A stretch of 62,750 bases of DNA, the filler included. It is 3 parts of 3 records of this genome, joined end to end, with 100 filler letters (N's around TTAATTAATTAA, not from the genome) between each part and the next. Parts side by side here need not be neighbours in the genome. Positions count along the whole stretch, not along the records: positions 1 to 26,899 come from SRR22947727_249; 2 more parts are not named here. One strand, written 5' to 3'. The position numbers were made by a program, and so were the translations under genes. Under the pieces are notes generated by a model that searched no databases, had not been told where the DNA came from, and saw nothing but the letters and a program-made list of their open reading frames with translations. This document shows positions 10,733 through 48,519 of this stretch, piece by piece. The first letter of the stretch is position 1. Every line of letters begins with the position of its first letter.

Positions 10733-11099
10733 GATCTTTTTATTTTTCTCAATAATATTTTCTAGCTTCACTGTAGGTGAATCTCTCTATGAGTTTGATA
10801 GCATTGAAGATGAAGAAAGATTTTATACATTAATAAAAGAAATTAGGTGTCCAAAATGCACAAGCGGCTCTCTGGCCAGCTCAAATGCACCGGTTTCTGA
10901 AGATATAAAATCAAAAATAATACAGTTAATAAAAGAGGGAAAATCAGATCAAGAAATAAAAGAATTTTTATCTGACAGGTTTGGCAATCAGGTTTTATAT
11001 AACCCAGGTTTAAGCAAAGATACATACTTTCTGTGGTTTGCACCTGGTTTATTTTTAATGCTAATTCTTCTTTTTTTCTTTTTCAGAAAAAGAACATAA
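10722..11099 (+). CDS. ccmH: Cytochrome c biogenesis protein CcmH (N-terminal redox domain)
   Basis: IRCPKC..SLASSNA, RFGNQVLYNP, C-terminal TM with LWFAP. Confidence 0.92.
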   Translation: MLIKIFLFFSIIFSSFTVGESLYEFDSIEDEERFYTLIKEIRCPKCTSGSLASSNAPVSEDIKSKIIQLIKEGKSDQEIKEFLSDRFGNQVLYNPGLSKDTYFLWFAPGLFLMLILLFFFFRKRT

Positions 11100-11878
11100 T
11101 GATAATAGTTTATTTGCTAGCTTTCATTTCATTATTTCCTGTATATGCCTACTTATTGGCACCAAAAACAAAAAATAAAGGGTATATTTTTGGCATTTCA
11201 TTTTTAATTTTAATTTTTTGTTTATTTTCATTCGTTGGTAAATATTCTTTTCTTGGTTCTATAAAAGAACAAGAAATAAATAATAAAATATTTTTAATAA
11301 TCGAGCAGGATAATGAAATACCAGTGAATCTATTTAACTCATTTGATGCAATTATTGATGAAGAAAGCAAACTTTATTGGGCCCAAAGTTATATACAAAA
11401 AGCTATGTCAGAGCAGAAGCTTCAAGCAGCTGAAAGTCTTATATCTTTTTCAGAAAAATACTTCATGACATCAGATGAAAAGTTTGTTTTTTATACTTTG
11501 TACACTCAACTTAGAGATTTAAAGTTCCCTATTTTTGCAAACTCTAAATTTATTCTTAACCTTTCTCCACCTGCTGATTGTGAAAATTATAAAGGAAATA
11601 TTTCGTTGTTTATTATGAATGGCCCGAACATACCTATTGCCAGTCAAAATTTCCAGAATTCTTTCGAAGTTTCATTAGGTAATAATAATTCTTCAATTCC
11701 TGGATTTGATCTTGCTTCAGCCTACCTCAATCAAGAAGCTTTGGAGCTTAAAGCATCATTATTTTGTGTTGAAAAAAACTTGGATTATTTTTCTGAAAAT
11801 GCCTTATTATTTGATCAAAATAATCATATAAATACCTATAATATTAGGCCAAATGAATGGTTAAAAAGAGAACAATAG
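11099..11878 (+). CDS. CcmI/CycH-like membrane-anchored protein (divergent)
   Basis: Two N-terminal TM helices; SLFIMNGPNIPIAS resembles the CcmI C-terminal domain; last gene of the ccm operon with a TAATG overlap. Confidence 0.55.
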   Translation: MIIVYLLAFISLFPVYAYLLAPKTKNKGYIFGISFLILIFCLFSFVGKYSFLGSIKEQEINNKIFLIIEQDNEIPVNLFNSFDAIIDEESKLYWAQSYIQKAMSEQKLQAAESLISFSEKYFMTSDEKFVFYTLYTQLRDLKFPIFANSKFILNLSPPADCENYKGNISLFIMNGPNIPIASQNFQNSFEVSLGNNNSSIPGFDLASAYLNQEALELKASLFCVEKNLDYFSENALLFDQNNHINTYNIRPNEWLKREQ

Positions 11879-11911: not shown

Positions 11912-14899
11912 ATGCAGCTAAATCATATAAAACTATCAGGTTTTAAAAGTTTCGTAGATCCAACGAAGATATCTTTTCCGACAAATTTAGTGGGTGTGGT
12001 GGGGCCTAACGGTTGCGGCAAGTCTAATGTTATTGATGCTGTTAGATGGGTTCTTGGAGAACTATCTGCAAAAAATCTTCGTGGCGAATCTATGGTCGAC
12101 GTTATTTTTAATGGATCTGAAAATAGAAAACCATCTGGGCAATGCAGTATCGAGCTATTATTTGATAACTCAAGTGGAAAAATTGGTGGCGAATACGCTT
12201 CATTCAATGAAATTTCGATTAAAAGAGTTATGACTAGAGATGCTCAATCCACCTATTTTATTAACAGCACAAAATGTAGAAGAAAAGATGTTCAAGACAT
12301 ATTTTTAGGAACGGGACTAGGCCCAAGCTCATATGCAATTATTGAACAAGGCATGGTTAGTAAATTAGTAAGCGCCAAGCCTGAAGAGTTAAGAACCCAT
12401 ATTGAAGAGGCTGCTGGAGTTTCAAAGTATAGAGAAAGAAGAAGAGAAACTGAGAGCAGAATCAAAAAAACTAAAGAAAATTTATCTAGAGTTAAAGATA
12501 TTAAAGATGAGATTGAGAGGTTAATCAGAAGGCTCGAAAATCAAGCAAATGCTGCAGAAAAATATAATCAATTTAAAAAAGATGAAAGTCAGAAGCAAAC
12601 TGATATTGCAATACTATACTCACTTGAGGCTAAAAATAATCGAGATAAACTTCAAAAAAATCTTGATGCGTTAAATAGAGATTTAAAAATCAAGCAGGCT
12701 GAGTCAGATTCAAAACAAGCTCAAATTGATGAACATAGAACACAAAATGCTTCTGTTGTAGATGCATATGAAAATGCTCAAAAAAACTTCTATTCGATAG
12801 GTGCTGAAATAGCTAAATATGAATCGGACCTTCAAAATGTTAGCAAATTAGAAATTTCTAATACAGATGCTCTCGAAAGAGCAAAAACAAGCTATCAAGA
12901 TGCTGTTGAAAAAGAATCAAGCTTTAAGGATTTAAGCCCTAAAGAAAAAGAATTAAAGCTAGATATCGCTATTGTGAAAGCTCTTGACGCTCTTAAGCAA
13001 AAAAGCATTATTGATGTCTTAGTAGATCCCTTAGAAGAAAAAATTGCTCAAAAACAACATGAACTCGACTCAAAACAAAATATTGTAGATGCAGTTAAAG
13101 CAGACCAGACTGAGATTACTGAAGAAATTAAAATTCTTCAACAACAAAAATATTCTATTGAGGCTGATATTGCAAGACTTGAAGGGGCACTTCAGAACCT
13201 CAATAAGATAGAAGAGAACGCAAGATTAGATTTTGAGAAAGCAAGCAGTAATTATTCTGATGCATTGCAAAAAGAGGCTAATAGCGAACACTTAACTCCA
13301 AAAGAAAAAGCTATTCATTTACTTGATTCTATTACCGAACTATTAAAAGCATTTGGCTCCAAAGCAGATTCATTAAACTCCAAGGTTCATGAGTTAAAAG
13401 CACTGCTAATAAATATTCTTAAAATTGCATCAGATCAATCTAAAAATTATACAGCTGATTTTTTGAATAGAAAGAATCAGCTAGAAGACCTTATCAAAAC
13501 AACATCTGAAGATGCATTGTCTAAAAATAAAGAATTATCTGAGTTAAAAGAAAAGAATATAAAAATTAAAAATGAATTGGACTCTAGGTTGGAAAACCAG
13601 TTTAATGTTGATGAAAAAATTCGAGACTTAGATAGCAGCAAATCATTAGTATCGAATGAGCTGCGAAGTTTAGAAAAGAATATTTCTGATTACAGGCTTG
13701 AGTTAAGAACGCACGAGATTAATCTAGAAAATGCTTCCATGGTATTGGATAAAGCTGGTATAAGTTTATCTGAACTAGATTCATCTAAGTATGCAAGAGC
13801 AGATCTTGCAAGCCTAGAGAACTCACTTGATGAGATTCAAAAAAATATTGCTGAATTAGGGTCATTTAACCTAGCTTCATCGGAGGAATATTTAGAAAGA
13901 CAAAAAGAGCTTAATAATATGATTTCAGATGGCAAGGCTAAAAAACTTGAAATTCAAAAAGTTATGTCAGATCTTGTTGAAAAAAGCTCTATTGCTGAAT
14001 CAAAATTAACTGACATTAGACAAAAGCAGTCAGAATTTAATAACAGTTTAAGAGAATTAGAAAATCAAAAGTCTATTGCTGATCTAGATTTAAAAGCCAT
14101 TGGTGAGAAGGTTACCAACCTTAGACTTGAGCTTAAAACCCATGAAATAAATTTAGATAATGCTAATACTAAAATTGCAGAATCTGGAGTAAATATAGAA
14201 AATATTGATTTTTCAAAGTATGAAAATATGGATATTAATGAGTTGCAGAATAGTCTGACAGACATCCAAGCTAAAATTATTCGTCTTGGAGCAATTAACT
14301 TAGCAGCTCCTGAAGAAATTGCATCCGAATCAAAAAGAAAAGAAGAATTAGATATTCAGTATAATGACTTAACCGAGGCCCTTGAAAAGCTTACTGGAGC
14401 TATCAAAACAATTGATATAGAAACAAAGACAAGATTTCAAGATAGCTTTGATGCTATTAATAATAGAATGAAAGAGGTATTCTCAAAATTATTTGGTGGT
14501 GGTATAGCTGAGTTAGCTTTGACTGAGGATGATGCATTAAATGCTGGTGTGGTTATTATGGCAAGGCCTCCAGGTAAGAAAAATTCTTCTATTTCACAAT
14601 TATCTGGTGGTGAAAAAGCTTTAACTGCTTTAGCACTAGTTTTTGCAATATTTGAACTTAATCCTGCACCATTTTGTATATTAGATGAGGTAGATGCTCC
14701 TCTTGATGATCTAAATACGATGCGTTTTATAAACATGGTTGAAGAGATGTCAAAAACAGTCCAATTTATATTTATAACTCATAACAAAGTATCAATGGAA
14801 AAGAGTGATTATTTGATGGGTGTAACAATGCAGGAGGCCGGTGTTTCAAGAATGGTATCCGTTGATGTAAATCAAGCATTAGAATTTGCTGAGGCCTGA
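11912..14899 (+). CDS. smc: Chromosome segregation SMC ATPase (atypical: no recognisable hinge, duplicated arms)
   Basis: GFKSF, Walker A GPNGCGKSN, IIEQG, EEAAG, LGAINLAA, LSGGE, ILDEVDAPLDD, FIFITHNK; located upstream of zipA. Confidence 0.93.
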   Translation: MQLNHIKLSGFKSFVDPTKISFPTNLVGVVGPNGCGKSNVIDAVRWVLGELSAKNLRGESMVDVIFNGSENRKPSGQCSIELLFDNSSGKIGGEYASFNEISIKRVMTRDAQSTYFINSTKCRRKDVQDIFLGTGLGPSSYAIIEQGMVSKLVSAKPEELRTHIEEAAGVSKYRERRRETESRIKKTKENLSRVKDIKDEIERLIRRLENQANAAEKYNQFKKDESQKQTDIAILYSLEAKNNRDKLQKNLDALNRDLKIKQAESDSKQAQIDEHRTQNASVVDAYENAQKNFYSIGAEIAKYESDLQNVSKLEISNTDALERAKTSYQDAVEKESSFKDLSPKEKELKLDIAIVKALDALKQKSIIDVLVDPLEEKIAQKQHELDSKQNIVDAVKADQTEITEEIKILQQQKYSIEADIARLEGALQNLNKIEENARLDFEKASSNYSDALQKEANSEHLTPKEKAIHLLDSITELLKAFGSKADSLNSKVHELKALLINILKIASDQSKNYTADFLNRKNQLEDLIKTTSEDALSKNKELSELKEKNIKIKNELDSRLENQFNVDEKIRDLDSSKSLVSNELRSLEKNISDYRLELRTHEINLENASMVLDKAGISLSELDSSKYARADLASLENSLDEIQKNIAELGSFNLASSEEYLERQKELNNMISDGKAKKLEIQKVMSDLVEKSSIAESKLTDIRQKQSEFNNSLRELENQKSIADLDLKAIGEKVTNLRLELKTHEINLDNANTKIAESGVNIENIDFSKYENMDINELQNSLTDIQAKIIRLGAINLAAPEEIASESKRKEELDIQYNDLTEALEKLTGAIKTIDIETKTRFQDSFDAINNRMKEVFSKLFGGGIAELALTEDDALNAGVVIMARPPGKKNSSISQLSGGEKALTALALVFAIFELNPAPFCILDEVDAPLDDLNTMRFINMVEEMSKTVQFIFITHNKVSMEKSDYLMGVTMQEAGVSRMVSVDVNQALEFAEA
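12590..13309 (+). repeat. Tandem 120-aa (360-nt) protein-level duplication in the SMC N-terminal arm
   Basis: DIAI at 12602/12962, YSIGAEIA/YSIEADIA at 12791/13151 and SPKEK/TPKEK at 12935/13295 all show a 360-nt offset. End points are approximate. Confidence 0.85.
13457..14314 (+). repeat. Tandem 143-aa (429-nt) protein-level duplication in the SMC C-terminal arm
   Basis: DFLNRK/EYLERQ at 13457/13886, RLELRTHEINL/RLELKTHEINL at 13694/14123 and LGSFNLA/LGAINLA at 13856/14285 all show a 429-nt offset. Confidence 0.88.
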
Positions 14900-15528
14900 T
14901 GGAACAAAATATTGATATATATCTGATTGGTTTATCTGTTCTAATTTTCTTAATTATTACATTTCTATTCATAAGAAAAATTTCAAGCTCTGGAGAGCTA
15001 AAGGTAAAAATTGAACCTGTTACAGATTCTTTTGAGATCAAAGAGATAGATGAAATAGAGATAAAATCACAAAAAGCCTTTGACTTTAATGAGCATGATA
15101 TTGAATATGAAGAACAAAAACTTGTTGTCCTTAATTTAATATCTAACGATAAATCTATTTTTGATATCGACCAAATATATGGGTTTATGAAAAATTCAAA
15201 TGCTTTTCTTACTAACGGTTTTTTTGTAATTAAAGATACAAATAATAAAGAGTCATTTCGTATAGCAAATGCTTTAAATCCTGGCACTTTTGAAAATGAA
15301 ACAGAAACTTTTGCCATTCTTTTGGCAGCAGATTTGAACAACGTATCTAATCCATTGAGTTCAGTTAAAGAAATGGTAAATTTTGCTTATCAGTTCTCTG
15401 AAAAATTTTATGCAAATATATGTGATCAAGAAAGAATGCCTATAACAAAACAAATGATTTCACATATTGAATCACAAGCACAGGAAATTATGAGATTAAA
15501 ACAGCTCAGTGGTTTAGAAAATAAATAA
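14899..15528 (+). CDS. zipA: Cell division protein ZipA (compact)
   Basis: N-terminal TM anchor, acidic linker and a C-terminal FtsZ-binding-like domain (LVVLNLIS, FRIANALNPGTF); canonical position after smc. Confidence 0.75.
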   Translation: MEQNIDIYLIGLSVLIFLIITFLFIRKISSSGELKVKIEPVTDSFEIKEIDEIEIKSQKAFDFNEHDIEYEEQKLVVLNLISNDKSIFDIDQIYGFMKNSNAFLTNGFFVIKDTNNKESFRIANALNPGTFENETETFAILLAADLNNVSNPLSSVKEMVNFAYQFSEKFYANICDQERMPITKQMISHIESQAQEIMRLKQLSGLENK

Positions 15529-15546: not shown

Positions 15547-16830
15547 ATGAAACCCTGGAAAATAATTCAGAAATTAGAAAGTGACAATAGTAGGTTATTT
15601 AAAGAAGGCGTTATAGAAGATAATCTTCATGATATTGTTTTACAAGAGGGGTTATCAATGTGTTTAGATGCCTTGGTAACATTTGGGGTTAAACAAGTTC
15701 CTGAATCTAATGATGATGGAAAAGGACTTGATTGGAATAAATTTAATTCATCTGCACAGCTTTTAATAATGAGAGAGAGAACTGGCCATGCTGCTAGAGA
15801 TGAAATTTTGCATTTAATGTCTCTAGCTACTTCAGAGCAATGGAATGATTGGTATAGAAGAATTTTAATTAAGGATCTCAGATGTGGAGTAAGCCAGAAA
15901 ACAGTCAATAATGTTTCAAAAAAAATGGGATTAAAATATAGCGTACCTGTTTTCTCATGCATGTTAGCTCATGATGGCGCCAAGCATCCAAAAAAAATTC
16001 AAGGAAGATGTCTCGTTGAATATAAATATGATGGAGTTAGAGTCATAGCTATTACAAAAAACAATAGCACAACTCTTTATAGCAGGAATGGAAAAATTTT
16101 AGGTAATTTTCCTCATATAGAAGATGCATTAAATAAAAAAGAATTTAATAATTTAGTATTTGATGGAGAAGTGGTCAGTGATGACTTTCAGTCTCTTATG
16201 AAGCAGGTACATCGAAAAACTAATGCTAAAACTGATGATGCTTATCTAGCTCTATTCGACATAATTCCTTTAGAGGAATTTAATAAAGGTAAAAGTAAGC
16301 TCAATAGTCTAGAAAGAAAAGATTTGCTTGATGATCTATCAAAAAATTTCAACTCTTGTATTAAACCGGTTGAATATGTAATCTTAGATTTTGATACCGA
16401 AGATGGCCAAAAAACATTTTCAGGTATGAATAAGAAAGCCTTAGAAGAGGGTTATGAAGGCTTAATGATTAAACCAATTAACGATATATACGAATCTAAA
16501 AGAAGTCACGCTTGGCTTAAGATAAAACCTTTTATAGAAGTTACTCTAAAGGTCACTCAAATTCAAGAAGGTACTGGCAAGCATGAGGGTAAGCTTGGAG
16601 CATTTTCAGTTGAAGGAGAGGACGATGGTAAGTTTTTCTCTTTGAGTGTTGGAAGTGGTCTCACAGACGACGATAGAGAAAAATTTTGGAGCGCTAGAGA
16701 TTCTTTAATAGGCCAATTAATTGAAATCAGAGCCGATGCTATAACTCAAAGTATTGAAGGAGAGCACTTCAGCTTAAGATTCCCTCGTTTTAAAACTTTT
16801 AGAGGCTTTGAACCAGGCGAAAAAATCTAA
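15547..16830 (+). CDS. ATP-dependent DNA ligase with N-terminal DNA-binding domain
   Basis: Motif I EYKYDGVR, YSRNGK, III FDGEV, IIIa ALFDI, IV EGLMIK, V WLKIK, VI SLRFPRF. No signal peptide, Zn finger or BRCT domain. Confidence 0.93.
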   Translation: MKPWKIIQKLESDNSRLFKEGVIEDNLHDIVLQEGLSMCLDALVTFGVKQVPESNDDGKGLDWNKFNSSAQLLIMRERTGHAARDEILHLMSLATSEQWNDWYRRILIKDLRCGVSQKTVNNVSKKMGLKYSVPVFSCMLAHDGAKHPKKIQGRCLVEYKYDGVRVIAITKNNSTTLYSRNGKILGNFPHIEDALNKKEFNNLVFDGEVVSDDFQSLMKQVHRKTNAKTDDAYLALFDIIPLEEFNKGKSKLNSLERKDLLDDLSKNFNSCIKPVEYVILDFDTEDGQKTFSGMNKKALEEGYEGLMIKPINDIYESKRSHAWLKIKPFIEVTLKVTQIQEGTGKHEGKLGAFSVEGEDDGKFFSLSVGSGLTDDDREKFWSARDSLIGQLIEIRADAITQSIEGEHFSLRFPRFKTFRGFEPGEKI

Positions 16831-37915: not shown

Positions 37916-39035
37916 TCTCATTAATTCTTTTTTCACATACATCATAGGGATTCGATTTACTTTGTATTTCAGGTAAATATTTTCGAATCTCTAAAATTTG
38001 CTTATCTCTAAAACTTTGGTCATTTAAAAGAATATCAAAAGACTCTAATAAATTTTTTTTATTTAAATTTCTATTTACAACTTCTTTAATTATCATTTTA
38101 TTACTTAAAATATTAAGAATATTAGCAAATCTAATACATACTAAAAAAGAGAATATAAAGTAAGTTAAAAAATTAAGTTTATAAAAAACTATTTGAGGTA
38201 TCAATCTTTTAGAAATTTCCAATGATGCAGTTCCTGAACAAGTAACACTAATAAACACATCGTTATATAATTTCTCATTTTTTTCGTTATTAATTGAAAT
38301 AACAGTTTCCAATTTCCAATCTTTTGTAAGATGATTTAATTTATCAACTAAATGCGGCAAAGTTGGAATAAAAATTTTATAATCTGTAATATTATTTGTA
38401 AGAAGATAATCATGAATATATTCAAGATATGGAAATAGTTTGTTAATTTCATTATCTCTACTTCCAGGCAAAAAAGCTATTAAATTTTTTTTCTCATTAT
38501 TATTATTATTATTATAATCACTATCATTTATTATTGATATAGGATGTCCAATAAAAGTTGACTTAAGACCTTCCTTTTCAAAAAATTTTCTCTCAAAATT
38601 AAATAAGGTAAAAATTTCATTAAAAACTTTAGAAAACTTTTTAGCTCTTCCCCTTCTCCATGCCCAAACTGTTGGAGCTACAATTTGTATTATTTTTTGT
38701 TGATATTTATTATTTTTAATTTTTTTTGCTAATTGATAATTAAAATCAGGAGAGTCAACACAAATAACTAAGTCATAATTATTAATTAAAATTTTATTGC
38801 TAAGTCTGTTAATTATTTTAATAAATTTTGGTATAGAAAATAAAATCTCAATTAAACCTAGAGATTTAAATAAACTGATATCATAAAATTTATTAGTAAA
38901 ATATACTTCAGATGATTTTCCACAAACACCATCTATTTCGTAATTATATTTTTTTAATTTTTGACAAATATTAAAAACAATATTTTCACCAGATTGTTCA
39001 GTACAACAAATAAATATTTTTTTATTTTTATTCAA
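37896..39035 (-). CDS. lpxB: Lipid A disaccharide synthase
   Basis: [37 protein letters not shown]. Confidence 0.93.
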
Positions 39036-39846
39036 TTTTATTACAAGTAGAAATAAAAACTTTATATTGATTAGCTAAATCAACAGTCTTTTCTTTATCA
39101 ATTATTAAACAACTGTTTTTTTCTAAAAAAACACCTTCATAATTACAATCTTTAAGCAATTTAATAGTCTTTTCACCAATAGTAGGTATATCCAAAATAT
39201 TACTTTGATTATATTTAGCAAACTTTACCAATATTCCTCTATCGCCACTTTTTTTATAGTCTTTACACCTAATTATTAGATTATCTGTACCTTCAACAGC
39301 CTCTAACCCTAAAACTATTTGATTTTGTATTATCATACTTTGTCCTACGTCTATTTCACCAAAAGATTTAAAAACTGATAAAGCTTTTTCTAAATTATTT
39401 CTTGATTTTCTTGTTGGCTTTAATTTAGTTAAGTAATCACTATTAGCAAAAAGTTCCGGGCAATACTCTTTCCAATTAAAATAATCAAAACCATTATCCA
39501 TAAAATATTTTTTGATAGAGACAAGCAAACTGTTATCTCCTGTTTTATTTAATAGTAAATTTTTTGCTAGTTTAAAAGTCTGAAAATCAAAACTTAAATC
39601 TGTAATACTAGGTCTTTTAATATTTCCTGCCATAATTATATTATCTATATTTTTGGCTTTTAAAGACTCAATAATTTTCTTAGCAGATTTAAGATTAATT
39701 ACAGTTACATCTAAATCTTTATAATTTATAATATTTAAAAATTCTTCAATAACAAAGAAAAAAACTTTAAAATTTTTTTTGATTAAGTTTCTACCTATAG
39801 TAATTGGAAGCTTTCCTCCACCAGCGATAATGCCAATATTATTCAT
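39028..39846 (-). CDS. lpxI: UDP-2,3-diacylglucosamine pyrophosphatase LpxI
   Basis: GIIAGGGKLP, DVGQ, EAVEGTD, DIPTIG; located between lpxA and lpxB. Confidence 0.9.
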   Translation of the reverse strand: MNNIGIIAGGGKLPITIGRNLIKKNFKVFFFVIEEFLNIINYKDLDVTVINLKSAKKIIESLKAKNIDNIIMAGNIKRPSITDLSFDFQTFKLAKNLLLNKTGDNSLLVSIKKYFMDNGFDYFNWKEYCPELFANSDYLTKLKPTRKSRNNLEKALSVFKSFGEIDVGQSMIIQNQIVLGLEAVEGTDNLIIRCKDYKKSGDRGILVKFAKYNQSNILDIPTIGEKTIKLLKDCNYEGVFLEKNSCLIIDKEKTVDLANQYKVFISTCNKIE

Positions 39847-40624
39847 TCATAAATGTTGTAATGCCTCTTTTATTAGATTTTTTTATGAATTGTATAATAT
39901 CTTCTATTTCTAAAATATTATCATATTTTTTATCAAGATTTTGAAGATTAATTTCAATAGAATTATTTTTATTAAAAATATCATGTAAGAATGAAGATAT
40001 TAACTTAATGTTCTTATTCGGTATTTTATTTCTTTTTAAACCTATTAAATTTAGACCTTTTAAGCCAGTTCTTATACCAATATATAAACAGTAAGGTAAT
40101 ATATTTTTTTCAACACCACTCATGCCTCCAATCATTGCATTTTTACCAATTTGTACAAACTGATGCACAGCTGAATTACCTCCTATAATTGCATTTTCTT
40201 CAATTTCTACATGCCCTGCCAATGTAGCATTATTTGCTAATATTACATTGGACTCAATTTTACAATCATGAGCAATATGAGAGCCAACCATAAAAAGACA
40301 ATTATTCTTTATCACTGTTTTAAGGCCACCACCTTTTGTTCCTGGGTTGGCAGTAACGTATTCTCTAAAAGTATTATTATCACCAATTACTAAATAATTT
40401 TTTTCATTTGCGAATTTTAGGTCTTGGGGTTCAGAACCTATAGATGAAAATGGATAAAAAATATTATTTTCTCCAATTTCTGTATTGCCAAGTATTGAGA
40501 CATGAGATTTTATTTCACAATTTTTATCAATCCTTACATAGTCTCCAATATAACAAAAAGGACCTATTTTCACACTAGGGTGTATTATTGCTTTTTTTGA
40601 AACATAGGAATTATTTTTTTCCAT
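39839..40624 (-). CDS. lpxA: UDP-N-acetylglucosamine acyltransferase
   Basis: Hexapeptide repeats, PQDLKF, HIAHDC, LAGHV, AVHQF. Confidence 0.96.
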   Translation of the reverse strand: MEKNNSYVSKKAIIHPSVKIGPFCYIGDYVRIDKNCEIKSHVSILGNTEIGENNIFYPFSSIGSEPQDLKFANEKNYLVIGDNNTFREYVTANPGTKGGGLKTVIKNNCLFMVGSHIAHDCKIESNVILANNATLAGHVEIEENAIIGGNSAVHQFVQIGKNAMIGGMSGVEKNILPYCLYIGIRTGLKGLNLIGLKRNKIPNKNIKLISSFLHDIFNKNNSIEINLQNLDKKYDNILEIEDIIQFIKKSNKRGITTFMNE

Positions 40625-40679
40625 ATTTAGTTAATAAAACAAAAAATAATAATTTATATAAATATATTATTTCTATTTA

Positions 40680-41114
40680 TTACTTACCTGTAATCATAGC
40701 TGAAAATTCTGACTCTGCTACTAAATAATCATTATGATAAGCTTTGCCCATAAATTTATAAACATTTTTTAGGCTATTAATCATCTCAACATAAAATTTA
40801 ATTTTATAGTTTGGAAGTACCGGTTTTCTAAATTTAGCTTTATTTATACTCATAAATAATACTGATTGATCGTTTTTATTAATCAAATTTTCTGAAACAA
40901 CAACACCAGCAGTTTGCGCCATTGCTTCAACAATTACTACTCCAGGTACTATAGGATTATCAGGAAAATGCCCTTCAAAAAAATACTCAGTCTCAGCAAA
41001 AGTTCGAAAAGACTCACCTATTTTACCTTTATCTATGATTTTACATTCCTCGATAAAAAGAAAAGGTTTTCTATGAGGTATTAGTTTTTTTATTTCTTCA
41101 ATATTTAATATCAT
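40680..41114 (-). CDS. fabZ: 3-hydroxyacyl-ACP dehydratase
   Basis: IPHRKPFL, FFEGHFP, PGV.IVEAMAQ, KFRKPV.P. Confidence 0.96.
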   Translation of the reverse strand: MILNIEEIKKLIPHRKPFLFIEECKIIDKGKIGESFRTFAETEYFFEGHFPDNPIVPGVVIVEAMAQTAGVVVSENLINKNDQSVLFMSINKAKFRKPVLPNYKIKFYVEMINSLKNVYKFMGKAYHNDYLVAESEFSAMITGK

Positions 41115-42115
41115 CACAATTTATTTAATTTTATAGAGGAAATTTTCCATCTTTTTATATCAACTGCTGGAAAACCTGCAACAATAGAGTTATCTTTAAT
41201 ATTTTTAGTCACTCCGCTTTTGGCAGCTATTTGAACATTGTTACCAATAGTAAGATGTCCTGAAATTCCAACCTGACCTCCAATCATTACATTATTTCCT
41301 ATAGTTGTGCTGCCAGCTATTCCAGTTTGGGCAGCAATAATAGCTTCATCACCAATATAAACATTATGAGCTATTTGAACTAGATTATCTATAAAGGAAT
41401 TTTTTGAAATAATAGTTGAATCAAAAACTGCTCTATCAATTGTGGTGTTAGAACCTATATTACAATTATCACCAATTAAAACATTACCTATATGATTTAT
41501 TGTTACTTTTGATCTTGGATCAAAACCAAAACCTGTTCCCCCAATAACAGAGCCTGATTTGATTACACAATTTGCTCCTATTATACAATCTTGTAGATTA
41601 CAATTAGAATATATTATTGAATTTTTACCAATAATAACATTTGGGCCAATTTTACAATTTGATTGAATAATTACATTATCTGCTATTTTACAGTTTTCAT
41701 AAATATTTACAAAACTGTCAATCTGAACATTATTTTTTAGAGTAGCAGTATTACTAATTGATGAATATTTTGATATAATACCATTAGATTTATTTTTAGA
41801 TGAATATAAATTTGATATTATCGCAAAAGACTTATAAGTATCTTCTACTAAAATAGATGCTGTTGAAGCTGGTAAATACTTTAAATACTCCTTATTTATT
41901 AGGCAGGCTTTGGCTTTGGTTTTTGTAAGTTTATTTAATTGTGAAGTATTATTAAAAAAAGTTAAATCATACTCTTTAGCATTACTTATTGAGTTTAAAG
42001 AATTAAAAAGTTCATTATCATCTAAATTAGAGATAGGATTTAAATCATTAGAGATTAATAAATTTTTAATATCAAAGTATGTAATTTTTTTAATATTTTT
42101 CAAAATTAATCTCAA
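41114..42115 (-). CDS. lpxD: UDP-3-O-acyl-glucosamine N-acyltransferase
   Basis: GGTGFGF, IGSNTTIDR, IDNLVQIAHNV, GIAGST; start codon uncertain. Confidence 0.95.
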   Translation of the reverse strand: MRLILKNIKKITYFDIKNLLISNDLNPISNLDDNELFNSLNSISNAKEYDLTFFNNTSQLNKLTKTKAKACLINKEYLKYLPASTASILVEDTYKSFAIISNLYSSKNKSNGIISKYSSISNTATLKNNVQIDSFVNIYENCKIADNVIIQSNCKIGPNVIIGKNSIIYSNCNLQDCIIGANCVIKSGSVIGGTGFGFDPRSKVTINHIGNVLIGDNCNIGSNTTIDRAVFDSTIISKNSFIDNLVQIAHNVYIGDEAIIAAQTGIAGSTTIGNNVMIGGQVGISGHLTIGNNVQIAAKSGVTKNIKDNSIVAGFPAVDIKRWKISSIKLNKL

Positions 42116-42611
42116 TTTTTATATTATTAACTTTTTCTTCAACTAAATCAGTAATATTAATAGAGTTACTCGATAAAATATAATTATTAGAATCTAAAAT
42201 TAGATCAATTTTATTGTCATCAGAGAACTTTTTTAAAACATCAAGAATTATATTAATTATTTTATTTTTAAAATTATTTACTTGAAGTTCATAGTGTAAA
42301 TTAAATTTTTCAATTTTATTATTAAAGTTATTAAGTTTTTGGTTGTAAATTTCTACTTCATTTTCAAATTCTTCAGGCTCAAGAATTAACTTCAATTCTT
42401 CTATTTTTTGTAGTTCTTTTTGAAAATTTAGTTCTTCTTTTGTAAATATAGCTGTGTGAGTTTGTTGATCTTTATTAATAAGATCATATAGTGAGACAAG
42501 GCTTGTATTATTTTGAATTATTTTCTGAAAATCTAATACTCGTATATTTGTTGAAAAAGCACTAGTACTAAAAGTGATAATTATAAAACTTAAAAATATT
42601 GTTATTCTCAA
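42090..42611 (-). CDS. skp: OmpH/Skp periplasmic chaperone
   Basis: Signal peptide, IRVLDFQKI, coiled coil, IDLILD...INIT; located between bamA and lpxD. Confidence 0.75.
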   Translation of the reverse strand: MRITIFLSFIIITFSTSAFSTNIRVLDFQKIIQNNTSLVSLYDLINKDQQTHTAIFTKEELNFQKELQKIEELKLILEPEEFENEVEIYNQKLNNFNNKIEKFNLHYELQVNNFKNKIINIILDVLKKFSDDNKIDLILDSNNYILSSNSINITDLVEEKVNNIKIEINFEKY

Positions 42612-44848
42612 TTTAAATTTCCTATTGAAAATAAAAACATTCTCTTAATATCATAATCTTTATCAACAAGAGGAAATCCCCATGAAAAGCCAATTGGACC
42701 TATTGGGGAATAATAATTAAATCCAAACCCGTATGATGCCCTTATATCTTTATCTGAAGAAGTAACAGTATTCTTATTACCCCAGATAGAGCCATAATCA
42801 TTAAATAAATTTAAATAAATAGGATTTTGTTCATTGAATGAAATAGGTTTAGAAAAATCAAGCTTTAAAGCTACGACGTTGTTACCCCCAACATATGAAG
42901 TTCTTGAATTCCTAGGACCTGCACCAAAAGAATCAAAACCTCTCAGCCATTTCCCCCCAAGAGAAAATTTATTATCAGATAAAATTTCGTTGTTATTAAA
43001 AGAAAAAATATTCCCTGCTTTGGCTTGTGCAGAAAAGATATTTTTACTCATTGAAATGTATTTCTTTCCAGTTATGACATTTTTAACAAATCCATTAGTG
43101 GAACTTGAGGGCGTTTCTATAAAATTAAAAAATGAAAGAAAGTTACCTCTTGAAGGTTTTAAGAGGGAATTAAGAGTATTAAAAGAAAAATCATTAGAAA
43201 AATTAAAACTAACACTTTCACCTTCAGAATTTTTTATGTTATTATTTACAGAAGATAAGTTAGATACCTTATAATCTTTAAGAGAATAACCAAGACCAAG
43301 AGTATGATAAGTATAATTAGCAAATTTATATTTAAAACTAGTATCGAAAGTTAATGAATTTAATTTATATGATTGTGAATTGGTATAATCATTTTCTTTG
43401 TAATTTACAGAATATCCATGATTAACATTATTATTAAAAAATAGCTTATCTGAAGTACTTAATACAAATTCCTTATTGTCATTATTAGTATTTACTAAAA
43501 ATTCTAATGTTCTTCCAGTGCCATTTATATTATTTTCCTTTAATCCACTGACAAAAGAAGCGCCATCTAAAGAGCCTATTGAAAAACCTACATTAAATGA
43601 GCCTGTTTGAGTTTCTTCAACAACTATATCTATGTTTTGAGAGTTTTCATCTATAATAAGTGCTTCAACTTTTGCACTTTTTATAAAATTTAATCGATTT
43701 AATTGTCGATTAATATTTTTGATTTTTGTATCATTAATTGGATCTCCTTCAGATAATTTTAATTCCCTTCTAAAAACATAGTCATAAGTTCTTTCGTTTC
43801 CTGAAATATTTATTTGATTAACATAGGAGGGTTGTGTTGAAGAAATTTTAAATAAAATATCAGCATTGTAATTATTAAATTTTTCAAAAGCTGTTATCTT
43901 ATAATATTGAATACCTTTATTTTCTAAAATTTTAGAAATATCAAACTCAATTTCATCAAGCTTTGCAGCATGATAAATATTTTTAAGATTATTTTGATTT
44001 TTATCAATTAATGCTAGAAATTCGCCATTTACATCTATGTTGTTATCTAAATTATTTTCAATATTTAAAGCAGCAATGAAGTAAGGCTGACCTTCATTTA
44101 CTAAAAAATTGATGTCAACTTTATTATTTGGAAAATACTCAACATCATAATCAATATTTACATCTTTGTAACCTTGTTCTTTATAAAAATTTTGGATTCT
44201 AATTTTATCATTATTTAACTGAAAAATTTTAAAATTATTATTGGCAAAAATATTAGTAATATTTTTTGTTTTAGATTTTATTATTGATAAAATTGTATTT
44301 TTATCGAATAAAGTATTTCCAATTATATTAATTTTTTTAATTTTTGTAATCCCACCTTCTTTAAAATCTATATAAACATCAGATGAATTATTAGAATATT
44401 CTTCACTTTTGTACTCTATTTGAATGTTATTATATCCTAGAGATTGATAAATTTTTGTTAGTTCATCAATTAAAATATTAATTTTAGTTTCTGATAAAGT
44501 ATATAATTCTAATTCATTAACAATATTATCAATATCCTCATCCTTAATCCTTTCATTATTTTCATAAATAAATTTATTAATTGAAGGGTATTCAATAATT
44601 TTAATTATATAATTTTTAGAGTCATAAGAGACTTCTACTGACTTAAAAAAGTTAGAATTAATTAATTTTTTTAAAATAAAATTTGATTTAGATTTTACAT
44701 CAATATCTGGTATTTCATCAATAATACTTATAACAATATCGTCATCGGTATATTCATTTCCCTCAATTATAAAATCTCTTCCAAAAACCTCAAAATTTAT
44801 AAAAAATAATAAAAAAAATAATGACTTAATAAAAGTTAATTTTTTCAC
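42608..44848 (-). CDS. bamA: Outer membrane protein assembly factor BamA
   Basis: POTRA repeats (GNERT...RREL), E.NINGTG, LRGFDSFGAGPR, SPIGP. Confidence 0.95.
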   Translation of the reverse strand: MKKLTFIKSLFFLLFFINFEVFGRDFIIEGNEYTDDDIVISIIDEIPDIDVKSKSNFILKKLINSNFFKSVEVSYDSKNYIIKIIEYPSINKFIYENNERIKDEDIDNIVNELELYTLSETKINILIDELTKIYQSLGYNNIQIEYKSEEYSNNSSDVYIDFKEGGITKIKKINIIGNTLFDKNTILSIIKSKTKNITNIFANNNFKIFQLNNDKIRIQNFYKEQGYKDVNIDYDVEYFPNNKVDINFLVNEGQPYFIAALNIENNLDNNIDVNGEFLALIDKNQNNLKNIYHAAKLDEIEFDISKILENKGIQYYKITAFEKFNNYNADILFKISSTQPSYVNQINISGNERTYDYVFRRELKLSEGDPINDTKIKNINRQLNRLNFIKSAKVEALIIDENSQNIDIVVEETQTGSFNVGFSIGSLDGASFVSGLKENNINGTGRTLEFLVNTNNDNKEFVLSTSDKLFFNNNVNHGYSVNYKENDYTNSQSYKLNSLTFDTSFKYKFANYTYHTLGLGYSLKDYKVSNLSSVNNNIKNSEGESVSFNFSNDFSFNTLNSLLKPSRGNFLSFFNFIETPSSSTNGFVKNVITGKKYISMSKNIFSAQAKAGNIFSFNNNEILSDNKFSLGGKWLRGFDSFGAGPRNSRTSYVGGNNVVALKLDFSKPISFNEQNPIYLNLFNDYGSIWGNKNTVTSSDKDIRASYGFGFNYYSPIGPIGFSWGFPLVDKDYDIKRMFLFSIGNLN

Positions 44849-45968
44849 TTATTTTAATCTCCAATAATTCATGATAATCTATAATATCTTTAATATTATT
44901 TAATTTATATTCCATATTTAATGAAGTTATTTTACGGATTATTTTCAAAATTTCTGTATATTTTATATATTTATTTTTAAACAAATTCACAGCATATTCA
45001 TTTCCAACATTAAACCTTATAATATTTGTAGGGTGAGATTTGTCTAAATTTTTAAAAAACTTATATACTGGAAATTCTTGATGCTTTATGGTCGAAAAGT
45101 TAAAAGTTGTGTTATTTGATATTTTAAATTTATTATTATTTAATAAGTAATTATACTTTTGATTTAAAAAATTATATATAGGTATTAGCATATCATTTTG
45201 AAAAGCGATCATATTATAAATATAATTATTATATTCAAAAATTGAATGAATTTGGGATTCTGGATGCATCAGAATGTCAAGCTTATCAAAAGGTAAATCA
45301 AATAAGTAATGAGCCTCAACTAATTCTAAGCATTTATTTACTAAGGTAGCTGAATCAATGCTGTTTTTATATCCCATATTCCATTTAGGGTGATTAGAAG
45401 CTTCTATAAAAGAAATGTTTTTAAGTGATTTATAAGTTTGCCCTAAAAAAGGCCCCCCAGAAGCAGTTAAAATAAGTTTATTTATTTCTAAATTATTTTG
45501 ATTAATATTTTGAAAGATTGAAAAATGCTCAGAATCTAAAGGATATATTTTATTTTTAAATTTATTTTTAAAATTATTAAATAAATGACCTGCTGATACG
45601 ACAGCTTCTTTGCTTACTAAACCAAGAGATTCAGTATTATGAAGAATTGGCTCAAGGTAATTTAATGATTTATATCCTGAAATTGCAAGTAGACTTAATT
45701 CAGATTTTGAATTTAACAAGTATGATTTTAAATCATCAAAATTTATTATTTTAACTTTTTTATTAATATTTTTTTTTAAATAATTTAATTTAGTTGCGTC
45801 ATTAAGATAAACATATTTTGGAGAATGTGTTTCAATTTGGTTTATGAGTTTTTTAACATTTTTATTTGCACATAGTAAATTTATTTTAATTGATGGAAAA
45901 TATTTTTTAATTATAACTAATGTTTTGCTGCCAATTATCCCTGTTGAACCAAAAATATTAATTAACAT
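44826..45968 (-). CDS. dxr: 1-deoxy-D-xylulose-5-phosphate reductoisomerase
   Basis: GSTGIIG, PLDSEH, LTASGGPF, HPKWNMG, DSATLVNK.LE..EAH. Confidence 0.93.
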   Translation of the reverse strand: MLINIFGSTGIIGSKTLVIIKKYFPSIKINLLCANKNVKKLINQIETHSPKYVYLNDATKLNYLKKNINKKVKIINFDDLKSYLLNSKSELSLLAISGYKSLNYLEPILHNTESLGLVSKEAVVSAGHLFNNFKNKFKNKIYPLDSEHFSIFQNINQNNLEINKLILTASGGPFLGQTYKSLKNISFIEASNHPKWNMGYKNSIDSATLVNKCLELVEAHYLFDLPFDKLDILMHPESQIHSIFEYNNYIYNMIAFQNDMLIPIYNFLNQKYNYLLNNNKFKISNNTTFNFSTIKHQEFPVYKFFKNLDKSHPTNIIRFNVGNEYAVNLFKNKYIKYTEILKIIRKITSLNMEYKLNNIKDIIDYHELLEIKISEKINFY

Positions 45969-45971
45969 AAA

Positions 45972-46592
45972 TTATAATGAACTAAATAAAGTTAAAAATA
46001 TAATTGAAGATATAAAACTATCAAATCTATCAAAAAAACCACCATGACCAAGAAGGTATTTACTAGAATCCTTAATATTGTTTTTTCTTTTAAAATAAGA
46101 TTCAATCAAATCACCAGTTATTGAAATACATATTATGAGATTTAGTAATATGATAAATGTCTTTAGATTCATTTCAATATAAAAAATTAAAAAAAAACCA
46201 ATAAGAAAGATATTAACAAATATTATTCCGCCTAAATAACCTTCTAAAGTTTTTTTTGGGCTTAAATATTTAAAAATATTATTTTTACCAAATAATTTAC
46301 CAGAAATATAACTAAAACTATCAAAAAGAATAATAGTAAAAACATAAATATTAAATATTGTAAAATCAAAAAAAATAAAAAAGTATAACGCAAAACAAAG
46401 ATATGATAATAACAAATAAAATAGTATTATTAAAAAAAAATTCTTAAAAGATTTGAATATTTCAAATAAAACAAAGCAATATATCAAAGTACCAAGTGAA
46501 AATAATAGATACTTATTGTTATAAGAAAGAAAATAAACAGCGATAAAAAATATAGATAGAGATAATCGAGTAAGTAAGTTTTTATAAACCAT
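45972..46592 (-). CDS. cdsA: Phosphatidate cytidylyltransferase
   Basis: SPKKTLEG, GDLIESYFKR, KDSS...GHGGFFDRFDS. Confidence 0.95.
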   Translation of the reverse strand: MVYKNLLTRLSLSIFFIAVYFLSYNNKYLLFSLGTLIYCFVLFEIFKSFKNFFLIILFYLLLSYLCFALYFFIFFDFTIFNIYVFTIILFDSFSYISGKLFGKNNIFKYLSPKKTLEGYLGGIIFVNIFLIGFFLIFYIEMNLKTFIILLNLIICISITGDLIESYFKRKNNIKDSSKYLLGHGGFFDRFDSFISSIIFLTLFSSL

Positions 46593-47265
46593 AAGTTCTG
46601 TTTATAGATTTATATTTAATAATTAATTTTTTAAGTTCATCAAAACTAAAATCTGGCCAAAGTGTTTCAATAAAAAAAATTTCAGTATAAGTAAGATTAT
46701 ACATTATAAAATTACTTAGTCTTTTTTCACCCCCAGTTCTAATTAATAAATCCGGATCTTTAATTTTTCCAAGTAAAAATAACTCTTTTATGTCTTCAGG
46801 GCTACTAATATTAAGAGATGAATTATCTTTAAGTTTTTGTAAAACTTGTTGTATTTCATTTTTAAAACCGTAATTAAATGCTAAATTTAAGTTTAATTCA
46901 CTATTGTTTACAGTTTCATATTCACAATGATCAATAAGCTTTAGAATTTTATTTGGTAAATTCAACTTTGAACCTATGATTTTTATTTTTACTTTTTTTT
47001 CTTCAATAATTTTTTCAAAAAAAAATGAAAAATCATCATAGATTACTTGAAAAATATTATTTATTGATTGTCTTTGAGTATTTTCTGAAGAAAGCGTGAA
47101 TAATGTTAAGTATTTTAATTTTATTTCAATACAATTGATTATTAATTGTGAGATATTGTTTAGGCCTTTTTTATAAGCATTTTTTAAATTAATATTATTT
47201 TTTTTTGCCCATCTTTTATTACCATCTAGTATAAGGGCAATATGCTCTAGACTATTATAAGACAA
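46582..47265 (-). CDS. uppS: Undecaprenyl diphosphate synthase
   Basis: HIALILDGNKRWA, SSEN, DPDLLIRTGGEKRLSNF, LWPDF. Confidence 0.95.
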   Translation of the reverse strand: MSYNSLEHIALILDGNKRWAKKNNINLKNAYKKGLNNISQLIINCIEIKLKYLTLFTLSSENTQRQSINNIFQVIYDDFSFFFEKIIEEKKVKIKIIGSKLNLPNKILKLIDHCEYETVNNSELNLNLAFNYGFKNEIQQVLQKLKDNSSLNISSPEDIKELFLLGKIKDPDLLIRTGGEKRLSNFIMYNLTYTEIFFIETLWPDFSFDELKKLIIKYKSINRTYGL

Positions 47266-47266
47266 A

Positions 47267-47815
47267 TTAGACCTTCATAATATCAGTTTTTTTTTGTTCT
47301 AGAATTTTATCAATATTTGATATGTATTTATCTGTATAATTTTGAGCTTCAGAAAGAAATTTTTTCAATTCATCTTCTGATAATTGAGATTCTTTTTTTT
47401 CACGTTTTTTTATTTCAATAAAATCTCTTCTAATATTTCTGATAGAAACTTTTGAGCTTTCAGCATATTGAGAAGCTATTTTAGTAAGCTCATTTCTTCT
47501 CTCTTCACTTAATTTAGGAATAGGGAGTCGAATTAATGCTCCTTCTACCTGAGGATTAATACCTAGATTAGACTCAAGAATAGAATTCTCAATATTTTTT
47601 GTGAGACTAATGTCCCATACTTGAATTGTAAGCATACTTGAGTCTGGAGATGAAATATTACCTAATTGATTTATAGGTGTTTTTGATCCATAAGCATCTA
47701 TAAAAATATTTTCAAGCATTGTTGGGTTCGCCCTTGATGTTCTTATAGTCTGTAATTCTTTTTCAAAATGCTCAATTGAGCTAGCCATTTTATTATCTAA
47801 GTCTTCTAAATTCAT
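47267..47815 (-). CDS. frr: Ribosome recycling factor
   Basis: IRTSRANP, LGINP, LSEERR, KVSIRNIRRD. Confidence 0.96.
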   Translation of the reverse strand: MNLEDLDNKMASSIEHFEKELQTIRTSRANPTMLENIFIDAYGSKTPINQLGNISSPDSSMLTIQVWDISLTKNIENSILESNLGINPQVEGALIRLPIPKLSEERRNELTKIASQYAESSKVSIRNIRRDFIEIKKREKKESQLSEDELKKFLSEAQNYTDKYISNIDKILEQKKTDIMKV

Positions 47816-47817
47816 AA

Positions 47818-48519
47818 TTAATGTATTTTACTATAACTTCCTTCTTCTTTCAAAGCTCTTATTAATGAATTTTCTTCAAATATATTTGTAATATATATTG
47901 GAATACCTGATTCTTTTGCCAAACTAATTGCAGTCAAATCCATCACTCTCAGATTTTTAGAGATAACTTTAGCATAAGTGATATCTTTAATTAATTTTGC
48001 ATTTTTATCTAAATTAGGATCACTATCATAAATACCATTAACTTTTGTCGCTTTAAGTATTTTTAAACAACCCATTTCAGAAGCCCTCAATGAAGCTGCA
48101 GTATCGGTAGAGAAAAAAGGATTTCCAGTACCTGCTGCAAATATAACAATGCGGTTTTTTTCTAAATGTCTAACAGCTTTTCTTTTGATATAAGGCTCAG
48201 CTATTTGAGACATTGAAATAGCTGACTGAACTCGAGTTGGTACATTGATTTTCTCTAAACAGCTTTGAAGAGAAAGAGCGTTCATTATAGTTGCTAACAT
48301 ACCCATATAATCTGAAGTAGACCTATCTATTCCTTCAGAAGCACCTTTGACACCTCTAAAAATATTTCCCCCACCTATTATTAAGCAAATTTCATAATTT
48401 AAGTTAGCAATTTTTTTTATTTCTTTAGAAATAAAGTTTATCGTAGATACATCAATTCCATAACCAGAAGCTCCCATTAGAGCCTCTCCAGAAAGTTTAA
48501 TTAAAATTCTTTCTTTCAT
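47818..48519 (-). CDS. pyrH: UMP kinase
   Basis: KLSGEAL, GGGNIFRG, DYMGMLAT, GTGNPFFSTD. Confidence 0.97.
   Translation of the reverse strand: MKERILIKLSGEALMGASGYGIDVSTINFISKEIKKIANLNYEICLIIGGGNIFRGVKGASEGIDRSTSDYMGMLATIMNALSLQSCLEKINVPTRVQSAISMSQIAEPYIKRKAVRHLEKNRIVIFAAGTGNPFFSTDTAASLRASEMGCLKILKATKVNGIYDSDPNLDKNAKLIKDITYAKVISKNLRVMDLTAISLAKESGIPIYITNIFEENSLIRALKEEGSYSKIH

Follow-up and report, generated by a model that had tools for sequence, protein, structure and literature searches.

A probable housekeeping Smc of the marine order SAR86 that lacks a hinge and carries duplicated arm segments

The hinge is regarded as a defining feature of SMC proteins (structural maintenance of chromosomes) and as essential to them: it is their dimerisation site, a DNA-binding site and a proposed gate. 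What, then, is encoded by a gene that has an intact SMC head, long helical arms and no hinge between them? Such a gene, smc, lies at positions 11912-14899 (+ strand) of a stretch of 62,750 nucleotides (hereafter the window) made of three parts from three records of one genome, joined with 100 filler letters between each part and the next. Its frame is uninterrupted and gives a product of 995 amino acids (aa) plus a stop. The original prediction, made from the letters alone, took it for a housekeeping condensin that dimerises through some minimal helical element or does without apical dimerisation. We conclude, with a probability of roughly three in four, that the 995-aa protein serves a SAR86 gammaproteobacterium as its only housekeeping Smc and as the ATPase of a Smc-ScpAB complex, which is the best explanation of the evidence as a whole. 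By descent, and in every tested feature except the hinge, it is an ortholog of Smc. Since it lacks the hinge, which is a defining feature, we file the protein as a variant rather than as a plain member of Smc.

The head carries the family assignment. The product scores 852.8 bits against the NCBIfam equivalog model of bacterial Smc (TIGR02168), above its cut-off of 567.35, and the first aligned stretch pairs aa 2-529 with profile positions 1-525 of 1181. Both head halves proved canonical, as had been read from the sequence: Pfam SMC_N covers aa 3-979 (E 1.2e-51), and Walker A (GPNGCGKS, aa 31), the signature (LSGGE, aa 897) and Walker B (ILDE, aa 923) are intact. The top Foldseek matches in the PDB are SMC chains from condensin, Smc5/6, the Pyrococcus Smc head with joint (5xei, template modelling score TMt 0.68) and B. 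subtilis, the head chains of the latter at 40-50% identity.

The absence of the hinge was borne out by Pfam, by profile-profile comparison and by an AlphaFold2 model whose middle is all-helical. The Pfam scan, which had been expected to come out empty, gave no match to SMC_hinge (PF06470) in the 995-aa protein even at E<=10, and a motif search of the same protein found neither GX6GX3GG nor CxxC. Using hhalign, we compared its middle with a hinge profile derived from 23 canonical Smc proteins, the closest ones. The probability of a match was 0.2% for the tip profile (aa 445-535) and 0.1% for the profile of the whole middle (aa 300-700), against 100% (E 3e-38) in a control where the hinge set was split in two. 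In a MAFFT alignment, the canonical Smc proteins closest to it (1150-1180 aa, with an overall identity of 36-38%) have their hinge residues inserted around aa 461-527 of the 995-aa Smc. There is no CxxC hook either, and the only cysteines (35, 78, 122 and 922) all lie within the head, just as the sequence had first been read.

Could the gene be an artefact, a pseudogene, or an SMC-like paralogue (RecN, SbcC/Rad50 or MksB) taken for Smc? The NCBI pipeline does call some members just 'AAA family ATPase'. Yet 24 of 25 genomes of the same genus carry a 994-995-residue match at 70-100% identity in an uninterrupted frame, and all of the 120 best database clusters listed are 995 aa long with intact frames, 78-99% identical and drawn from many separate contigs and sources. 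The same records exclude an assembly deletion at the apex. Between the window and the nearest genome (G001), smc differs at 7 codons, 4 of which are amino-acid changes. The gene is under purifying selection over its full length, as judged from ratios of nonsynonymous to synonymous substitution rates (dN/dS, below), and no second strong Smc match occurs in any of 41 relatives. Rad50 models give at most 58 bits against cut-offs of 700-1087, and the protein has no CxxC and no arm cysteine; the Mre11/SbcD partner was not searched for. The RecN model TIGR00634 gives 29.2 bits against a cut-off of 407.85 (RecN being a protein of about 550 aa with short arms), and archaeal models fall far below their cut-offs. 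We give the artefact or paralogue reading almost no weight, refuted as it is by the intact frames, by selection and by the TIGR02168 score set against those of Rad50 and RecN.

Lack of a hinge is no peculiarity of the window gene but a trait of the SAR86 order as a whole. We sampled 121 genomes from 4 families and 20 genera, 55 of them at least 90% complete, and a six-frame profile search found PF06470 in none of the 121 and none of the 55; as a control, the search detected the domain in 10 of 14 model genomes. The partners of the complex are kept. Of the 121 genomes, 112 gave a match to ScpA and 113 one to ScpB, in each case including 55 of the 55 near-complete ones, with scpA and scpB adjacent; ParB was found in 5 of 5 genomes checked. 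The MukB N-terminal domain (PF04310) was found in 0 of the same number of genomes, in a search that did not include MukE and MukF. The survey of length and hinge that the original prediction had proposed thus returned no hinge in the order, together with shorter hinge-less forms, and the proposed check for partners returned ScpA and ScpB and no MukB N-domain. Its view of a housekeeping condensin at the canonical smc-zipA position likewise agrees with the TIGR02168 score above cut-off, with the single strong Smc match per genome and with the gene order in the window, where a ccmF-ccmG-ccmH cluster is followed by smc and then directly by zipA. The nearest hinge-bearing Smc relatives come from Cellvibrionaceae, Porticoccaceae, Halieaceae, Alcanivorax and similar (Cellvibrionales- or Pseudomonadales-type) genomes.

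What stands in the place of the hinge? AlphaFold2, run on a 56-sequence alignment (mean predicted local distance difference test, pLDDT, 77.6), places helices at aa 171-332, 345-456, 463-479, 482-614, 632-648, 657-757, 775-792 and 799-861, and no beta structure outside the head and no alpha/beta domain in the middle appear in this model. The arm would be a coiled coil with a joint: it is helical over aa 171-861, breaks at the expected joint (758-798) and has the match to 5xei given above. The middle had been described as coiled coil throughout. In the model it is helical save for short breaks, and the duplicated copies of the tip loop and of the joint loops that it contains had been overlooked. 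The apex had been placed at aa 466-515, near the tip but slightly late, since the turn in the model consists of a loop (457-462), a helix (463-479) and a break (480-481); the apex peptide singled out at the time (aa 466-511) covers the helix of the tip together with the beginning of the returning arm. The parts of the gene, including two pairs of repeat units and the two blocks by which a shorter form in the same family differs, are as follows.

11912..14899, + strand: smc, hinge-less long-arm Smc of 995 aa plus stop (open reading frame, TIGR02168, SMC_N, Foldseek).
11912..12421, + strand: N-terminal ATPase head half, aa 1-170, with Walker A; 85-95% identical across the long forms of four genera, dN/dS 0.01.
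12422..12790, + strand: head-proximal N-arm helix, aa 171-293; common to the short forms (alignments), within AlphaFold2 helix 171-332.
12791..13150, + strand: N-outer repeat unit, aa 294-413, with the mid-arm copy of the tip loop (SPKEK; model break 333-344); dN/dS 0.11.
12914..13273, + strand: block N, aa 335-454, 120 aa; a gap in 11 of 11 short forms of the family (MAFFT), its position ambiguous within the repeat.
13151..13510, + strand: N-inner repeat unit, aa 414-533, holding the functional tip; the best match to the single unit of the short forms.
13280..13354, + strand: arm tip, aa 457-481; in the AlphaFold2 model a loop (457-462), an amphipathic helix of 17 residues (463-479) and a break (480-481).
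13481..13909, + strand: block C, which is the C-inner repeat unit, aa 524-666, 143 aa; joint-loop copy with breaks 615-631 and 649-656 and the motif LGSFNLASSEEY; dN/dS 0.06.
13910..14338, + strand: C-outer repeat unit, aa 667-809; the genuine joint with breaks 758-774 and 793-798 and the motif LGAINLAAPEEI.
14339..14896, + strand: C-terminal head half, aa 810-995, with LSGGE at 897 and ILDE at 923; 40-50% identity to B. subtilis heads.

Two internal duplications account for the repeat units. In the N-arm, aa 294-385 match aa 414-495 with 35 of 92 residues identical (38%; BLAST E 4e-13; z 14.2 against shuffled sequences), and in the C-arm aa 570-659 match aa 713-802 with 37 of 90 identical (41%; BLAST E 1e-23; z 23.6 against shuffled sequences). 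The idea that all four units are copies of one was rejected, N against C units giving z of 1.1-1.4. The genuine joint has three residues (G793, N796 and A799) that are invariant in all 56 sequences of alignment A1. Among long forms the copied elements also keep conserved positions, with the consensus L.PK..ELKL for the tip loop and LGS.NLA.P.EY for the joint. The copied tip loop and the copied joint lie 112 and 133 residues from the tip, and may face each other in mid-arm.

The shorter hinge-less forms bear directly on how this arm came about. The Smc of family f4 has 732-734 aa, that of f3 809-810 aa and that of f2 822-827 aa, and no Pfam hinge was found in any of the three shorter-form representatives scanned (732, 810 and 827 aa). 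The window's own family, f1, has both lengths: 38 of 41 sampled genomes have a match, 16 of them long and 22 short. One of these long forms is split across two contigs and one short form is cut by a contig end; in this count the long forms match the query through to residue 993-995, and the short frames are 729-745 aa. Among the extracted open reading frames of the family, 17 loci have a length of 995-996 aa and 10 loci one of 727-733 aa, with no other length. In the MAFFT alignment, what sets each of the family's 11 short forms apart from the long form is the absence of exactly two stretches, aa 335-454 (120 aa) and aa 524-666 (143 aa), and window-by-window matching within g17, g15 and g10/g14 agrees with this two-block difference. 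BLAST high-scoring pairs (short 1-425 with long 1-423, and short 394-732 with long 657-995) had suggested that the short form lacks a single contiguous piece of about 263 aa. We rejected this, since in the window matching the short forms map onto aa 1-~310, ~431-~520 and ~664-995 of the long form, which rules out a contiguous deletion.

The single N unit of the short forms is closer to N-inner than to N-outer in 8 of 9 comparisons, the exception being the distant f4 form, and their single C unit is closest to C-outer in 9 of 9. The AlphaFold2 model of one short form (L041, 732 aa, pLDDT 80.3) has a helix at 171-336, a loop at 337-343, a 17-residue helix at 344-360, a loop at 361-365 and a helix at 366-494, followed by the joint breaks and the neck helix. 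The two models thus have the same tip plan of loop, 17-residue helix and turn. By the boundaries of the long-form model, the extra N block consists of the loop 333-344 (the SPKEK copy of the tip loop) and then about 110 helical residues. The extra C block has about 101 helical residues and a joint-loop copy of about 42 residues that includes LGSFNLASSEEY, the genuine counterpart being LGAINLAAPEEI. The 995-aa protein is the long-arm version of the 727-733-aa hinge-less Smc of the same family.

Is the lengthened arm under selection? We computed dN/dS against the G011 ortholog only (dS 0.4-0.8, unsaturated), more distant pairs being saturated in dS. The ratio is 0.01-0.02 in the heads, 0.04 in the proximal N-arm, 0.03 in the tip-bearing unit (aa 414-523) and 0.06-0.11 in the other three arm units. 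Between the long forms of four genera the blocks are 34-51% identical, against 85-95% for the N-terminal and 70-94% for the C-terminal head half. Their length, on the other hand, is fixed. The 13 long forms of alignment A2, from 4 genera, have no internal gap column, the sole gap column being terminal. Arm length therefore appears to be under a quantised constraint: the sequence drifts fast, the length does not, and the family has two lengths only. According to the sections of PMC5344682 (Burmann et al. 2017) on arm length, the arms of the B. subtilis Smc function only in periodic length regimes with a period of 91 aa and have a superhelical period of about 99 aa, and natural Smc arm-length modes lie about 100 aa apart. 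On the model boundaries, the extra helical length in SAR86 would amount to about one superhelical turn of the coiled coil per strand.

The tip is where the arm is most conserved. Long and short forms of the family have the motif LSPKEKA[IM]HLLD ... IL.IAS.QSK. In the tip region L461, P463, E465, L495, L499 and Q509 are invariant in 24 family sequences, and K466, D472, K496, I502, A506 and R520 are nearly so. The broad hydrophobic face of the predicted tip helix and its conserved charged residues would be compatible with an interface, and are not proof of one.

How might two such molecules be held together? We propose that the Smc-ScpAB of SAR86 would load and translocate like other Smc-ScpAB complexes. 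ScpA would hold two Smc molecules by bridging their heads, ATP-driven head engagement would add to this hold, and side-by-side arm contacts would end in a helical contact from tip to tip. The lumen that holds DNA would then be closed without a hinge, as in the B. subtilis Smc engineered to carry the zinc hook of Rad50. Of the ways of joining the pair, this combination of ScpA bridge, head engagement, arm alignment and tip-tip contact seems the most likely. That the hinge fold as such may be dispensable has a precedent: in the results given in PMC5344682, a B. subtilis Smc whose hinge had been replaced by the Rad50 zinc hook still supported growth.

The tip might instead do nothing of the kind. 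The arms would in that case be joined at the heads only, by the ScpA bridge and ATP engagement, DNA would be held in the compartment of kleisin and heads, and the arms would serve as levers or spacers. There is no hinge, no hook and no cysteine in the arm, the tip measures only about 25 residues, and ScpA and ScpB are fully retained, all of which speaks for such an arrangement. Single-armed hinge mutants of the B. subtilis Smc are reportedly inactive, however, and nowhere in the arm is constraint as strong as at the tip (dN/dS 0.03 against 0.06-0.11 in the neighbouring blocks). The invariance of L461, P463 and E465 and the near-invariance of the charged residues among the 24 members also exceed what a plain turn would need, and the strict conservation of length in both strands suggests that the arms must match something. 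We consider the lack of any apical dimer unlikely.

We built a backbone tree from the 689 columns common to all forms (a quick IQ-TREE run with supports from the Shimodaira-Hasegawa-like approximate likelihood-ratio test, SH-aLRT), with 7 canonical or hinge-bearing proteins as outgroup and without six near-duplicate sequences of the window's genus. All SAR86 Smc form one clade (support 99) beside the canonical 1150-1180-aa gammaproteobacterial Smc, in the order (f2+f3),(f4,f1), a topology that fits a single loss of the hinge at the base of the order. Within f1, long forms appear in three places: in g15 (two long forms and a short one, support 100), in g17 (long sister to short, support 100) and as g14+g1, sister to the short form of g10. 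Parsimony on the long or short state (13 long, 10 short) requires at least 4 changes. Forcing the long forms to be monophyletic on the common columns costs 456 log-likelihood units (approximately unbiased test, p-AU 2e-8), for a group that was named after the tree had been seen. Trees of the repeat units look different. All 8 C-inner copies fall in one clade (support 99), as do all 8 N-outer copies (support 99), and the single units of the short forms are interspersed among the C-outer and N-inner copies, roughly by genus. Each extra copy being one clade, the double duplication happened once. Since then, either the module has been lost several times over or recombination has carried it from one lineage to another.

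If the long form were ancestral to the family, the forms of about 730 aa would derive from repeated losses of both blocks. Such a history would account for the single origin of each extra copy, for a C-inner topology that fits the genus tree, for long forms that turn up at three separate points, every time as sister to a short form from their own or a neighbouring genus, for the rejection of their monophyly on the common columns, and for blocks already 34-50% identical between genera. It asks, however, for about six independent double deletions with the same outcome (counted on the backbone tree), the sister family f4 is short and f2 and f3 have the lengths given above, and no single-block intermediate occurs among the sequences listed, where no search was aimed at them. 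We find this history rather doubtful.

Alternatively, the short form would be ancestral, the double duplication would have occurred once, and the long module would then have spread between SAR86 genera by homologous recombination inside this conserved gene. This would take few gains by parsimony and agrees with short outgroups, and the heads, 85-96% identical between genera, could act as recombination arms. In the central regions the long form of g17 is nearer to g15 (61/48/62/50%) than to g14 (39/34/54/42%); in the flanks it is nearer to g14 than to g15 (71 against 59% in the proximal N-arm, 82 against 68% in the C-head). Taken region by region, these identities give a hint of exchange between g15 and g17, though they are near saturation, so that distances are weak evidence here. 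The C-outer units of the g17 and g15 long forms, moreover, group with the short C unit of the same genus, and a transfer would have involved the inner part only. We hold spread by recombination to be possible, at odds below even. That a recent lateral transfer of the blocks explains everything is not supported, since the blocks are 34-50% identical between genera.

Taken together, these data lead us to a broader proposal, which we hold tentatively and at just short of even odds: the SAR86 order, free-living and abundant worldwide, runs its housekeeping Smc-ScpAB without a hinge, with an arm length that is quantised and switchable, and the arm module was made once by paired duplications, after which genera acquired or shed it whole on several occasions within their own bounds. 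The module in this proposal comprises about one superhelical turn of both strands with the copied tip loop and the copied joint. If this were true, nature would provide pairs of long and short alleles, 96% identical in the N-terminal and 88-92% in the C-terminal head half, that differ only in arm length.

Several points weigh against the picture drawn so far and must be kept in mind. The mid-arm breaks at aa 335-346 and 640-654 have pLDDT below 50, and helix pairing follows from helix lengths alone. The added length averages 131.5 aa per strand rather than 91-99, and comes to about one period only after the loops defined by AlphaFold2 are subtracted; the rough arm lengths of about 186 aa (short) and 318 aa (long) do not fall exactly on the published modes of 163, 238 and 341. 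The contacts from tip to tip and from arm to arm are ones that we infer; a dimer prediction for the tip (two copies of aa 405-540) speaks neither for nor against them, its score being 0.01 against a mark of 0.32 in a run where the alignment was unused and the fragment's own fold was uncertain. The backbone and block trees disagree, so the history is not one simple lengthening. Finally, the status of ScpAB, ParB and MukB comes from G001 and its relatives and not from the window's own genome.

How does the protein compare with known systems? With the Smc of Smc-ScpAB (the B. subtilis and Pseudomonas type; TIGR02168; 5xg3, 5h66, 3zgx and 5xei) it has in common the head motifs, the joint motif LGxxNxxAxEE before the C-head, a predicted long antiparallel coiled coil, the ScpA and ScpB partners, ParB in the genome, the smc-zipA synteny and a score above the equivalog cut-off. 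It differs from it in having no hinge, with a helical tip of about 25 residues instead, and in arms that are duplicated and carry a second copy of the joint loop. Rad50/SbcC and RecN, which are SMC-like ATPases without a hinge, resemble the predicted plan of the SAR86 Smc in combining a head with an antiparallel coiled coil and a small apical element; in both of them this element dimerises, as a zinc hook in Rad50/SbcC and as helical arm ends in RecN. MukB is likewise the ATPase of a gammaproteobacterial condensin but has a small divergent hinge; SAR86 differs in lacking the MukB N-domain in 5 of 5 genomes and in having ScpA, not MukF, as kleisin. The engineered B. subtilis Smc with the Rad50 hook and resized arms, as described in those sections of PMC5344682, is similar in having no hinge fold and in its discrete lengths, here two within one family. 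The SAR86 Smc has neither a zinc hook nor a known dimerisation fold, unlike the engineered one, and its step in length comes from the duplication of arm segments.

Our literature search for a hinge-less Smc in SAR86 found no report and one relevant paper, PMC12153180 (Environ Microbiome 2025), so that the existence of hinge-less ocean SMCs has already been published. The parts of that paper on SMC homologues describe an abundant 'hinge-less' oceanic cluster in the Tara Oceans gene catalogue, assign it to Actinomycetes or an unknown lineage, and speculate on a different function or a MukBEF-like mechanism. Its description resembles that of our protein: a marine SMC homologue with head and coiled coil, no hinge and no CxxC. 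SAR86, ScpA and Gammaproteobacteria each have 0 occurrences in its main text, and those parts contain no account of a helical tip, of arm-length classes or of arm duplications. What is new is the assignment to SAR86, the retained ScpA, ScpB and ParB partners, and the duplicated arm module.

An abundant marine order thus keeps Smc, ScpA, ScpB and ParB under purifying selection without a hinge. With a hinge-less Smc-ScpAB maintained by selection in a whole order, the roles proposed for the hinge can be tested in a naturally occurring protein as well as in engineered chimeras. The arm-resizing experiments in B. subtilis have their natural counterpart in the paired duplications, the length that stays fixed and the related long and short alleles, which bear on the proposal that force from the heads is transmitted by arm length and superhelical phase. 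In this sense the SAR86 Smc is an experiment of nature on the purpose of the hinge and of arm length.

Some observations around the locus deserve mention. The gene downstream of smc is the following.

14899..15528, + strand: zipA, 209 aa (PF04354 ZipA_C, E 8.9e-14), whose start overlaps the smc stop by one base.

The zipA product is short, and the one-base overlap between its ATG and the smc stop suggests translational coupling in a streamlined genome. Between ccmH and smc, an open reading frame of 281 aa (11033-11878, + strand) has no Pfam match at E<=0.001 and may, by its position, encode a CcmI-like protein. After smc-zipA the window has an ATP-dependent DNA ligase of 427 aa (15547-16830, + strand; DNA_ligase_A_M and OB_2), where related genomes have the NAD-dependent ligA. 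The adenylation domain of the NAD ligase (PF01653) was not found in 6 of 7 genomes of the window's genus, in 7 of 7 of g10 and in the single one of g11 (88-97% complete). It is present in 16 of 32 family genomes, there directly after smc-zipA. The ATP-dependent enzyme seems to have taken the place of LigA, supposedly universal in bacteria, at the very same locus. Further along, positions 38001-48000 have a G+C content of 0.20-0.24, against 0.27-0.37 in the first 38 kb, and GC skew flips sign near 38 kb; this region may be an island or a strand switch.

Beyond SAR86, the 150 best cluster representatives include four Smc clusters without a Pfam hinge at E<=0.01: P0224 (906 aa), P0269 (941 aa), P0246 (1110 aa) and P0230 (1132 aa). 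Their sources are given as Gammaproteobacteria bacterium, Litorivicinus sp. and Litorivicinaceae bacterium, and they are often annotated 'AAA family ATPase'. Loss or strong divergence of the hinge may thus also have occurred in other marine gammaproteobacteria. Two proteins of our tree outgroup, P0134 (990 aa) and P0232 (1003 aa), keep the Pfam hinge (aa 436-532 and 444-540, respectively) and are about 170 aa shorter than usual, with short arms.

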